A program made the position numbers and the translations under genes. A model generated the notes under the pieces. It searched no databases, was not told the DNA's origin, and saw only the letters and a list, made by a program, of their open reading frames with translations. Below, one piece after another: positions 50,794 through 62,302 of a stretch of 64,000 bases of DNA (within the stretch, counting starts at the first letter, position 1; every line of letters starts with the position of its first letter). The DNA comes from a virus (Duplodnaviria > Caudoviricetes). The DNA is taken from IMG/VR virus record IMGVR_UViG_3300027804_000001, positions 192,001-256,000 of that record; one strand, written 5' to 3'.

Positions 50794-50815
50794 CTTTTAT
50801 AAAATTTATGTGCAT

Positions 50816-50846
50816 AAAAAAAGAGGGAAAAACCCTCTTTTTTTTT
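50816..50846. terminator. Bidirectional-type intrinsic terminator
   Basis: A7-GAGGG-AAAAA-CCCTC-T9, between the glutaredoxin stop and the structural block. Confidence 0.8.
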
Positions 50847-59448: not shown

Positions 59449-59951
59449 TAGTTATTATTTCTTTCTCTTATTATTGGGTTCACCGCATCCTCAAATGCTA
59501 AATGAAATTTAATTAATTTTTGAATCGTATTTAAAGTTTCGTCCTCAACTTTTAACATATCTGCATTTATATAAAATCCAGATTCTTCTCCTGATATCAA
59601 TACAAAATTAATATCAACATCGGGAATCGACCCATCTAATCTAATTTGGTTCATGTTTATTGTGAAACCAGGTTCTAAATTAGCAAGTTGTGATACCTGT
59701 TCTCTGAAGGAATCAACCAATCCAGATAACGTGTTTTTCTGATTATCGGTTAATTTCATATCCTGATTGTCAGAAGACAACATTTTAACATCAACATCGT
59801 TAATAACGTCGATATTATCGTCTATTTTATCTGTTTGAGGTAATTCCTCTTCTTTTAGGATTTTAGTGTTTCTTGTTGACTCTGTGAGATTCCTCATAAT
59901 GTTTAACATCTTTTTGGTCTCATCGTATCCTATATTTTTTCTATTTGTCAT
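59448..59951 (-). CDS. Hypothetical protein (167 aa)
   Basis: Tiles with its neighbours. A TATTTATA motif lies at 59994-60001, inside the upstream gene. Confidence 0.65.
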   Translation of the reverse strand: MTNRKNIGYDETKKMLNIMRNLTESTRNTKILKEEELPQTDKIDDNIDVINDVDVKMLSSDNQDMKLTDNQKNTLSGLVDSFREQVSQLANLEPGFTINMNQIRLDGSIPDVDINFVLISGEESGFYINADMLKVEDETLNTIQKLIKFHLAFEDAVNPIIRERNNN

Positions 59952-60546
59952 GATTAAATAATATTCTAAAATTGAATGATGGGTTTATATCTGTATAAAT
60001 ATTTGAAAAGTTCGATTTACATACAATACCGTTAAATTTGGAGATATTTTCCAAATAACCTTGTGATGGGACGTGTTGTTTGAATATTTCGTGTTTTTCA
60101 CACAACATATCACATAGTTCTGAAACCTTCTCTATTTGTATTTCGTTATATTTGTCCCAATAGTAGTAGTTCCTCCAATTTTTTATAAAAGGTTCGGATC
60201 TATATGGGTCTCCAACCCAATTTGTATATATACCATTTATTGTATTTTTATTTAACCAACCGAGATTTTCAATTGCAATCTTAATCTGTTTTTTATCTAC
60301 CTTGGGTTCATTGAATGTGACGGAACTATGGTTGGTATCAAAAATTTGAAAAACCATACCTAACTTATTTACAATAAAATGTGGGATATCTTCGTAATTT
60401 CCGTTCTTACGATATTTTAATTTTTGAACAAAATCATCTACCCTTCTTTGAGTGTCATAAAGTAAAATTTGAGTTTTTTTACTTTTCCTTCTGGTGATGT
60501 TTAATTTGTCCTTATCTAATACGTCTACGTCTTGAATTACCAACAT
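59941..60546 (-). CDS. N-acetylmuramoyl-L-alanine amidase (Amidase_2)-fold protein with apparently degenerate Zn ligands
   Basis: QILLYDT, HFIV..LG.V.Q, IAIENLGWL, Y...QIE.V.ELC..L and DINPSF follow the amidase layout. Confidence 0.7.
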   Translation of the reverse strand: MLVIQDVDVLDKDKLNITRRKSKKTQILLYDTQRRVDDFVQKLKYRKNGNYEDIPHFIVNKLGMVFQIFDTNHSSVTFNEPKVDKKQIKIAIENLGWLNKNTINGIYTNWVGDPYRSEPFIKNWRNYYYWDKYNEIQIEKVSELCDMLCEKHEIFKQHVPSQGYLENISKFNGIVCKSNFSNIYTDINPSFNFRILFNHDK

Positions 60547-60811
60547 TTCTAGAAACTATTTTTTTTATTATTGGTTGTTCGGTAGGTGTTGGTGTTGTTG
60601 TAATTTCTTCTTCTGACGGAATGATAGTTTCGTTATTGTCTAAATCATAGATAACATGATTGGGATTTATATCGTCTGATTCCCAATATAATTCATCAGG
60701 TGTTAATGTTGGGGTTGGTACCGCCAAATCTAAGGATGGAAAATCTTCCGTGTCTAAGGGGTTGTTTTCCAACACCTCTAAGGGGTCTTCCTCCGTTAGG
60801 AATTTTTTTTT
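60512..60811 (-). other. -1 frame extension (~97 aa) of 60796..62052, reachable by a frameshift on an A10 run
   Basis: The -1 frame opens with TGA-AAA-AAA-AAA-TTC immediately at the run (60803-60812) and the zero frame closes 2 codons after it. Both sides have the same acidic Pro/Thr-rich composition. Confidence 0.65.
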
Positions 60812-62052
60812 TCAACCTCTTCGTTTGGAACTACTGGGGTTGCGGTTACGTTAGTTTGTAACTCTATTTCTTCTGGTGTTGCAAATGGTTCGGGTACCTG
60901 TTCATCCCAAAATTGTTGTTCCAATTCTTCAGTCCACCCATCTTCTTCATCTTGGAAAATATTCTCTGAAATTGGTTCTATAGTGGAAAAATTTTCATTT
61001 TCTTCCTCTTGTGTTGGTTCTATAGTGGAAAAATTTTCATTTTCTTCCTCTTCGACCATATCAAATTTTCTTTCGGGTTCAGTTTCTTCTTGAATAGGTT
61101 CAAACACGACTTGTTTCAATTCTAACTTTTTTTCTTCAATAGATATCGGTGTATCGTTTATAATTTCTTTATTTATGTTAGGGATTTCGTCATCACCGAT
61201 TAATTCCTCTTCAACTTCTTTATGAGATTGGGGTTGTTCTACTGCTTTAACTTCAACCTCAAAATCATTAATATGAACATGTTTTTCTTTTATTTTTTCA
61301 CTGTATCTTTTAGCGGCCTCTTTTAATTTTTCATTAGGTAATGGAGGATTTAATAAAACCTCTTCTAATATTTTTAAATCTTCTTCACTTAATCTCAATC
61401 TAGATGTTTCACCAACTAAATCACTCGCTTCTATTTTATTTAATTCTTGTTCTTTTTTATAATTTTCAATTGCATTATTAATTAATTCATCATCTATAAT
61501 GTGTTTTTTTCCTTCTTCGATTGATATTTCTTCTTTTTTTCTATCTTCTTCAGTAAACTTAACTAACATGTGAAGGAATGAAAGAGAGATAATTGGTAAC
61601 ATACCTCCCGCGAAAAAGGCTAAAAATCTCTTGTGACCAACAAAATCAGTTGATTCGACACCCATAAAAGAAACTAAGGGTGAGACTAAATCAACCCAAT
61701 CTTTAAATGATTGAGAATTAATATCAATATAAGAGTAGGCAAAAAATATGTTACCTATAAATTGAACGACTGTTACAATTGCAAATGGAAAATAAACTTT
61801 CTTACCCATGTCCGCCGAAATTGCAGCCAATGCGGATAGTGCTGCAATCTCAATACCAATTGATAGGTAAATCGACCAACTTACAGGATTAGAAATTCCA
61901 TACCACTTTGTTACGTGTGATATCGAAACAATTGCCACCGTTATGATTGGTATCAAAAACGCGGCAATGATTAGTGTTTTAAAATTATTGTTTATCCAAT
62001 GTTTCATATTACCACTTAGTGACCTCTTTTTGTAATTTAGATATTTCTTCAT
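60796..62052 (-). CDS. Multi-pass membrane protein with a long acidic C-terminal tail
   Basis: About four hydrophobic segments in the first ~165 aa. Probable start is the Met at 62007 (MKHWINN), directly after the upstream stop. Confidence 0.75.
   Translation of the reverse strand: MKKYLNYKKRSLSGNMKHWINNNFKTLIIAAFLIPIITVAIVSISHVTKWYGISNPVSWSIYLSIGIEIAALSALAAISADMGKKVYFPFAIVTVVQFIGNIFFAYSYIDINSQSFKDWVDLVSPLVSFMGVESTDFVGHKRFLAFFAGGMLPIISLSFLHMLVKFTEEDRKKEEISIEEGKKHIIDDELINNAIENYKKEQELNKIEASDLVGETSRLRLSEEDLKILEEVLLNPPLPNEKLKEAAKRYSEKIKEKHVHINDFEVEVKAVEQPQSHKEVEEELIGDDEIPNINKEIINDTPISIEEKKLELKQVVFEPIQEETEPERKFDMVEEEENENFSTIEPTQEEENENFSTIEPISENIFQDEEDGWTEELEQQFWDEQVPEPFATPEEIELQTNVTATPVVPNEEVEKKNS
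60973..61052 (-). repeat. 38-bp direct repeat with a 42-bp period (EEENENFSTIEP x2)
   Basis: Copies at 60973-61010 and 61015-61052 are identical. Confidence 0.95.
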
Positions 62053-62302
62053 CTATTTGTGTTTGACGTTGAACATCTAAAATTTTACGGTCAGTCGCCT
62101 GTATCATCCTTTTTTCGGATTTTAACCCCTCCACTTGTAAAATAATGGTTAATTCCCTTTTATTATATGTGGAATCTTTAATTTGTTTTATTTCGTTTTT
62201 AATTTTGGTTATTTCTCTACTATCTGAACATCCTTTAAAAAATGTTAATAGTACCACAACCAATACAATAATTGTAAAATTATTTTCAATAAACTTTTTC
62301 AT
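62009..62302 (-). CDS. Membrane-anchored, possibly lipoprotein, coiled-coil protein (spanin-like topology)
   Basis: N-terminal KK, hydrophobic stretch and FKGC (possible lipobox), followed by a coiled coil. Confidence 0.55.
   Translation of the reverse strand: MKKFIENNFTIIVLVVVLLTFFKGCSDSREITKIKNEIKQIKDSTYNKRELTIILQVEGLKSEKRMIQATDRKILDVQRQTQIDEEISKLQKEVTKW

Follow-up and report, generated by a model that had tools for sequence, protein, structure and literature searches.

A conserved frame switch at an A run, most likely transcriptional, in a membrane protein gene family of tailed phages

The DNA considered here is a stretch of 64,000 nucleotides (nt) from a very large freshwater tailed phage (Duplodnaviria; Caudoviricetes), positions 192,001 to 256,000 of the IMG/VR record IMGVR_UViG_3300027804_000001. 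This whole stretch is called the window, and all coordinates are positions in it. On its minus strand, a gene for a four-helix membrane protein stops just after a run of ten A residues (A10), and the -1 frame opens at that same run. An earlier note, made from the letters of the window alone, had read this as a probable programmed -1 frameshift or a phase-variable run. The analysis indicates that the frame switch is real, that it is strongly conserved and concerns a new gene family, and that its mechanism is most likely transcriptional. Judged by the comparison of homologous loci, it is a conserved programmed recoding site that would give two isoforms, and the lengths anticipated for them, about 400 and 500 amino acids (aa), agree well with the 403 and 498 aa predicted here.

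The A10 run, its frame geometry and its conservation

The frame-switch site is the A10 run at 60803..60812 (minus strand; 0-frame phase G-AA AAA AAA AA-T), and the minus-strand reading reported before, GTT GAA AAA AAA AAT TCC TAA with A10 at 60812..60803, was seen again. The 0-frame open reading frame (ORF) of the short isoform (60796..62007, minus strand) encodes 403 aa and ends in EKKNS*, with its TAA (60798-60796) 4 nt after the run. In the -1 frame, a TGA at 60814-60812 touches the run and is followed by AAA AAA AAA TTC CTA ACG; this frame is indeed open from the run to 60512, the closing TAA being at 60514-60512. The extension so delimited (60512..60811, minus strand), put at about 97 aa in the earlier note, has 99 codons, KKK plus 96 aa, before its stop. 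It includes LYWESDD..NPNHVIYDLDNNETIIP and has a basic end, SRNVGNSRRRRIR, the last residues being RRRRIR. It can be read only after the gain of one A (or the loss of two) in the mRNA, or after a -1 shift of the ribosome. A heptamer of the X_XXY_YYZ type, A_AAA_AAA, lies in the 0-frame phase in every lineage. Concerning the start of the gene, position 62052 had been proposed, but the ATG at 62007 (MKHWINN) is most likely the true one, as judged from the homologues: all of them start at the position equal to 62007, with MK(H/N)W, and the TAA of the preceding gene ends at 62009. It is this start that gives products of 403 and 498 aa.

The A10 run is the longest homopolymer of the window, where only one other run of nine or more was found, in an intergenic position. 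A mononucleotide model predicts about two such runs in the window, so the run by itself is unremarkable and its conservation is what counts. To evaluate it, 17 loci at about 50% identity were collected in a scan of viral contigs, and 283 relatives in a scan of metagenomes, 80 of which were fetched; the counts of runs and extensions given below refer to 58 distinct homologous loci with a complete extension. In all 58, the A run is kept with equal stop geometry. Its length is A9 (3 loci), A10 (51) or A11 (4), never interrupted and never shorter than nine. The 0-frame stop comes 0–12 nt past the run (0–4 nt in 51 loci), and the -1 frame, which in most lineages is closed no more than three codons before the run (up to 28 codons in a few), is open beyond it for 50–151 codons. 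The frame needed is always -1, though the run occupies three different codon phases. So, the loss of the run, with the extension either fused in frame or missing, which the earlier note had regarded as fatal to its proposal, was not what the homologues displayed.

Codon usage gives a measure of this constancy. In these genes Lys is AAA in 81% of cases and Glu is GAA in 78%, and about half of the independent lineages should thus have a G in the run; the expectation of an all-A run is about 0.51 per lineage and the observation is 58/58. In a wider protein search, at least 4380 homologous clusters were found at 90% identity, and in 118 of the 120 best cluster representatives the C-terminus is no more than five residues from KK(K). 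For the protein of the window itself, the contig on record measures 333,612 bp. In a related genome of 286,785 bp (G001, the IMG/VR contig behind locus L007), six A10 runs occur and only the one at this site is coding, so that coding A10 appears to be avoided genome-wide there except at this site. All six runs of that genome lie on one strand; the five non-coding ones are in intergenic A/T-rich spacers, and one of these adjoins a terminator-like hairpin.

The conserved state is not the only one in nature. At least four distinct loci (L011/L020, L022, L034, L035) and 6 of 150 cluster representatives carry the extension fused in frame, and A10 persists at the junction in the four in-frame loci that were examined at the DNA level. 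Three of them (L011, L022, L035) contain two in-frame A10 runs each, both coding (E)EKK(N/K). Relatives of the membrane domain at about 55% identity or less have a tail that ends in frame with other basic motifs and no A-run device; the ends KRLSYxKR, ERIGSNK.. and IKWG.. were noted in P0133, P0134, P0166, P0171, L088 and others. Therefore, the device is a trait of one large subfamily, and the tail with its C-terminal signal is modular.

The extension is, on the evidence of its sequence, coding and part of the same protein. The stretch has no stop in the extension frame in any lineage, compared with 3–10 stops in the other two frames. The ratio of nonsynonymous to synonymous substitution rates (dN/dS) was 0.26–0.41 for three more diverged pairs, and 0.34–0.83 for three close pairs with few substitutions. 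The LYWE motif occurs in 37 of the 58 extensions; 43 of the 58 lack an ATG ahead of their last 15 codons, and no start codon is conserved. An open frame, conserved motifs and in-frame fusions are thus found together, as would be expected if the frame reached by the shift codes for something functional and conserved. Longer proteins that include the extension of the window itself were searched for and none was found, which is weak evidence.

Whether the run could really be A11 was a reasonable doubt, and the earlier note had asked it of the reads. The A10 is bridged without indel by contigs from two DNA runs of one study, which may be the source of the window itself, and from two metatranscriptome libraries of two further studies; contigs of both DNA and RNA origin show A10 and not A11. 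An assembly error can therefore be dismissed. Minority variants do not appear in contigs, so only the DNA state is settled by them; RNA cover was missing from parts of the stretch.

RNA structure around the run and the mechanism of the switch

The structures pointed out before as possible stimulators all lie downstream of the run. The TTCCT-N5-AGGAA hairpin (60802-60788) and the GTTG/CAAC stem are present, but they recur only in the closest relative (L068) and cannot be taken as conserved stimulators. Likewise, both copies of the ACCCCTTAGA duplication were confirmed (60786-60777 and 60762-60753), but, considered as a stimulator, it is not conserved; it encodes a small (D/N)PL(E/D) peptide repeat. 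In 61 distinct loci, the 50 nt downstream of the run gave a mean z of -0.04 versus shuffles, many being without any structure, and the stimulator 5–9 nt downstream that is usual, though not obligatory, for -1 frameshifting was not found.

The 45 nt upstream of the run are structured, with a mean z of -1.19. In the window, a hairpin at 60813..60842 (minus strand) pairs CAACC (60842-60838) with GGTTG (60817-60813) around a 20-nt loop, and 60% of the 58 distinct sequences have, as their minimum-energy fold, a hairpin with its final base pair directly against the run. Such run-abutting hairpins were formed by 9.4% of dinucleotide shuffles, by 8.5% of 555 other runs of seven or more A of the same loci, and by 5.6% of 72 runs of the window. 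Giving one vote to each distinct type of 3′ arm, the hairpin was present in 13 of 22 (binomial p about 1e-8). The stems vary by lineage: CAACC/GGTTG in the window and CATCTTC/GAAGATG, CATCATC/GATGATG, CGTC/GACG, CAACATTAG/CTGATGTTG and CTTTATCTG/CAGATGAAG in others. When arms were swapped between lineages, the folding energy went from -6.2 kcal/mol (native) to -4.2 kcal/mol (p of 1e-4). In an ungapped subfamily alignment, four of seven pairs had changed on both sides, i.e. in a compensatory manner, and 85.7% of the cells were paired, versus 10–57% with the partner slid. The site thus has a nascent hairpin immediately 5′ of the run, a feature, not obligatory, of slippage of the IS630 type. A search of Rfam returned one unrelated sub-threshold match only.

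It is worth noting that an upstream hairpin and a run never shorter than nine point to polymerase slippage rather than to classical -1 ribosomal frameshifting. The latter, assisted by 3′ stimulators, was the form of recoding first proposed, and both features speak against it. The explanation that we hold to be somewhat more probable than all others is a hairpin-assisted, programmed transcriptional slippage (+1 A) from which the 403- and 498-aa isoforms would result. The run is a homopolymeric A/T tract able to fill the RNA:DNA hybrid (about nine or more). E. coli polymerase slips efficiently at nine A/T (PMC5009743); at A/T runs, backward slippage that adds a single base is the predominant event, and its frequency grows exponentially as the run lengthens (PMC5574713). 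A sigma-70 family factor is encoded by the phage two genes upstream of the membrane protein gene, so transcription is probably carried out by the host core polymerase. The course of events could be as follows. The T10 template would be transcribed by the host multisubunit RNA polymerase directed by the phage sigma factor. Once the hybrid of 9–10 bp had become all rA:dT, the nascent hairpin behind the run would shorten or shear it and, by analogy with hybrid shearing at terminators, would pull it back one register before elongation resumed. With the transcript slipped back by one, one A would be copied twice. A fraction of the mRNAs would then be A11, and their ordinary translation would give the 498-aa isoform (..VEKKKFLTEEDP..RRRRIR), since the insertion of one A leads to exactly the -1 frame. 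From A8 mRNAs a similar product with one lysine fewer would be made, while in-frame lineages keeping A10 would make the same two forms in reversed proportions. On slipped mRNAs only, ribosomes would reach the start region of the next gene, the extension stop being 35 nt past its ATG.

Several observations weigh against slippage of the polymerase. The hairpin of the window itself is weak (5 bp, 20-nt loop, -3.9 kcal/mol), although most relatives have stronger ones, and about 40% of the distinct sequences have it displaced, poor or absent. The in-frame variants hold A10 with only weak or displaced upstream hairpins, which means that the persistence of the run could come in part from the conserved KKK/EKKN motif and the 81% bias to AAA. 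The only RNA data are assembled contigs, all with A10; no transcript heterogeneity was seen in them, and minority variants are dropped from such assemblies. The hairpin of IS630 is a single characterized case and, in the account given in PMC5009743, promotes deletion and not insertion. Finally, since A_AAA_AAA is in phase in every lineage, a -1 shift of the ribosome is always possible and would yield the same protein.

This last process would consist of two Lys-tRNAs re-pairing one base back on a homogeneous A10 mRNA, with low efficiency and no 3′ stimulator. The heptamer is correctly phased whichever of the three observed run phases is considered, a shift to -1 is what every locus requires, the contigs from RNA libraries carry A10, and low-level shifts free of stimulators are known in tailed phages, as at many G/GT sites (PMC5009743). 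Nevertheless, it lacks any conserved structure downstream, and the element conserved is an upstream hairpin juxtaposed to the shift site, which attenuates -1 frameshifting, also on 70S ribosomes (PMC6321510, PMC3639245). In addition, the run is always nine or longer and never A6G, though seven would do. We regard ribosomal frameshifting as a possible but rather unlikely explanation when taken as the main one; it could coexist with slippage. The sliding of ribosomes on poly(A) is another translational event, in which the ribosome would stall on iterated AAA codons, slide, and sometimes emerge in the -1 frame. It has been documented on such codons in E. coli systems, where A11 gives robust sliding and A9 or A10 little (PMC4363877), and 54 of the 58 distinct runs are A9 or A10. 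Sliding has besides no frame specificity, whereas the geometry here is always -1, and it seems very improbable as the origin of the long isoform.

A change in the DNA itself would be a different matter. Homopolymeric tracts are classic contingency loci, and an A tract that gained or lost a base in replication would leave subpopulations encoding the short or the long protein, in line with the occurrence of in-frame variants in nature. However, those variants carry A10 and not A11, the DNA contigs are A10 only, and the differences among A9, A10 and A11 never alter the frame relation in the 58 relatives, because these differences come from substitutions at the edge of the run. No frame-switching length polymorphism was found among the relatives, and the alternative of a phase-variable A10, admitted in the earlier note, retains hardly any probability. 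It could also be argued that there is no recoding at all, and that the break comes from an error of assembly or a gene in decay, or separates a 403-aa protein from a small ORF with its own initiation; gene callers do annotate the short ORF alone, and a GTG occurs at 60775 within the extension of the window. Against this, the break was met again in assemblies and studies independent of one another, every lineage keeps the extension frame free of stops for its 50–151 codons despite a genome of 30% G+C, and most lineages have the -1 frame opening exactly at the run. Together with the rarity of early ATG codons in the extensions (43 of 58 without one before the last 15 codons) and the natural in-frame fusions, this makes the absence of recoding the least credible of the explanations considered.

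Relation to known recoding systems

The preferred explanation, transcriptional slippage, has precedents in bacteria. In tssM1 of C. rodentium, A11 precedes a premature stop, slippage reaches 20–25% and both length variants are needed, while in tssM3 of Y. pseudotuberculosis the full-length form is in frame and the run yields a truncated one (PMC4256274). The likeness is close: the gene of an inner-membrane protein is broken just after about 11 A, stuttering gives a short and an extended form, and the split and in-frame counterparts mirror the two states found among the phage homologues. The differences are that tssM1 and tssM3 are bacterial secretion-system genes, from two species only and with no stimulatory RNA structure reported, whereas in the phage gene the arrangement is shared by sequence clusters numbering in the thousands and a hairpin adjoins the run. 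Slippage is shown in the former and would be predicted for the latter.

Concerning the hairpin, the nearest parallel is the IS630 transposase of Roseiflexus (Penno et al. 2015, as described in PMC5009743), in which a nascent stem-loop immediately 5′ of the motif drives slippage, with features shared with intrinsic terminators. According to that description, the motif there is a T5C5 heteropolymer that loses a single C, whereas the phage site is an A homopolymer in which +1 A (or -2 A) is needed. Slippage at runs of nine A/T occurs in Shigella spa13/spa32 and mxiE and in Thermus thermophilus dnaX, and in spa13 it leads to a 112-aa extension that overlaps the start of the next gene, as the phage extension does by 35 nt, and affects the expression of that gene (PMC5009743). 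These are cellular genes, and the coupling of expression known for spa13 is speculative for the phage site. Lambda G/GT and T7/T3 10A/10B resemble it in that a phage gene, through a slippery heptamer close to where its ORF ends, gives a minor form with a C-terminal extension from the -1 frame. They have 7-nt heptamers and are structural or assembly genes, while the phage site has a run of 9–11 nt, a conserved structure upstream, and a non-structural membrane protein.

To our knowledge, nearly all programmed frameshifts described in tailed phages take place on the ribosome and belong to tail-chaperone or capsid genes. The gene described here belongs to a different class, that of a virus-only four-helix membrane protein with at least 4380 clusters, in genomes of about 290–330 kb, and its site has the anatomy of polymerase slippage: a run of nine or more, a 5′ hairpin and nothing 3′. 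If slippage were confirmed, the family would offer dozens of naturally varied hairpins and runs, together with in-frame counterparts, for studies of slippage driven by nascent RNA. The site should be of interest both to the recoding field and to phage annotation, as gene callers truncate the protein in essentially every metagenome, and its C-terminal domain of 50–150 aa is missed or called an orphan ORF.

The protein and the neighboring genes

The short isoform has four N-terminal transmembrane helices followed by a long acidic tail, which would be cytoplasmic according to the positive-inside rule. The N-terminal membrane domain (61480..62007, minus strand; about 176 aa) was found in viral sequences only, with 74–84% identity among loci and 703 clusters at 50% identity. 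Its AlphaFold2 model (pLDDT of 92) predicts helices at residues 9–36, 42–64 and 68–93, a short one at 99–113 and a long one at 122–174. Foldseek gave no fold match for this domain in the PDB, and only viral hypothetical clusters in the Atlas. A DNA search of 50,697 phage records gave no match, tblastn a single match of 32%, in an unannotated uncultured phage of 462 kb, and neither PHROGs nor NCBIfam had a match for the protein or for the extension.

In the tail, and so in both isoforms, the segment at 61300..61431 (minus strand) resembles TacA, AtaR and KacA. It matched PF08681 (DUF1778) with 28.2 bits, above the curated cut-off of 21, at profile positions 36–79 of 80, and among PDB chains it matched KacA (5zgn, residues 43–85 of 88) and AtaR (6ajm/6gtq) with E from 8e-5 to 5e-4. 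About two thirds of the close homologues also match PF08681. The ribbon-helix-helix half is absent, and no GNAT match was obtained among the neighboring genes scanned against Pfam. It can be said that the protein carries a TacA-like segment rather than being a TacA antitoxin, since only the C-terminal half is present and no scanned neighbor matches GNAT. In the solved structures of AtaR-AtaT and KacA, the half matched is the one that binds the toxin. As a lead only, suggested by the profile and chain matches, the protein may be a membrane-tethered antitoxin mimic that neutralizes host GNAT toxins.

The gene that follows (59941..60546, minus strand; ATG at 60546-60544) has a weak Amidase_2-like match (23.5 bits, under the cut-off of 26). 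Its ATG sits inside the NV codons of the RNV motif of the extension, and the 35 nt at 60512-60546 (minus strand) are dual-coded, being at once the end of the extension and the start of this gene. Of 46 distinct loci, 38 have an overlap of 35 or 32 nt, and the entropy of the overlap is lowered at all three codon positions in comparison with the stretch just upstream. The basic end of the extension, RNVxNxxRR, lies over that start. The conservation of RNVGNSQRR in the window was considered as sole proof of selection on the extension and rejected: because the overlap is dual-coded, it is not independent evidence. Speculatively, the translation of the downstream gene may be coupled to the slip.

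A broader hypothesis, which we put forward tentatively and do not expect to hold in full, is that in widespread large freshwater phages a terminator-like stutter device (hairpin plus A run) would set the ratio of two forms of a membrane protein with a segment like the GNAT-neutralizing part of TacA/AtaR, and the same slip would gate translation of the overlapping gene, which resembles a peptidoglycan amidase. If it were true, tailed phages would have here their first conserved case of programmed transcriptional slippage, and the neutralization of host defense would be linked to a switch sensitive to polymerase speed or to ATP.

Some minor features of the window can be added. A scan for promoters and terminators gave no excess of sites over shuffles. 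The intergenic A9 at 50838-50846 was considered as a second slip site and discarded, as it is the A-tract of an intrinsic terminator. This terminator, at 50800-50846 (minus strand), is a textbook one, with A9, AGAGGG-loop-CCCTCT and T8, which implies that the phage uses signals that depend on hairpins and are read by a polymerase of bacterial type. The gene upstream of the membrane protein gene (62009-62302, minus strand; 97 aa) carries a signal sequence with a Cys after it (LLTFFKGC), and its C-terminal part is a coiled coil, so it is lipoprotein-like, with only a faint match of the Lpp/OprI type (E of 0.009); its stop abuts the ATG of the membrane protein. In the tail of the latter, at about 60970-61052 (minus strand), a tandem duplication encodes EEENENFSTIEP twice, and public contigs break there. 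The ENFSTIE motif recurs in the homologues L001, L003, L011 and L016, which suggests a short linear binding motif.

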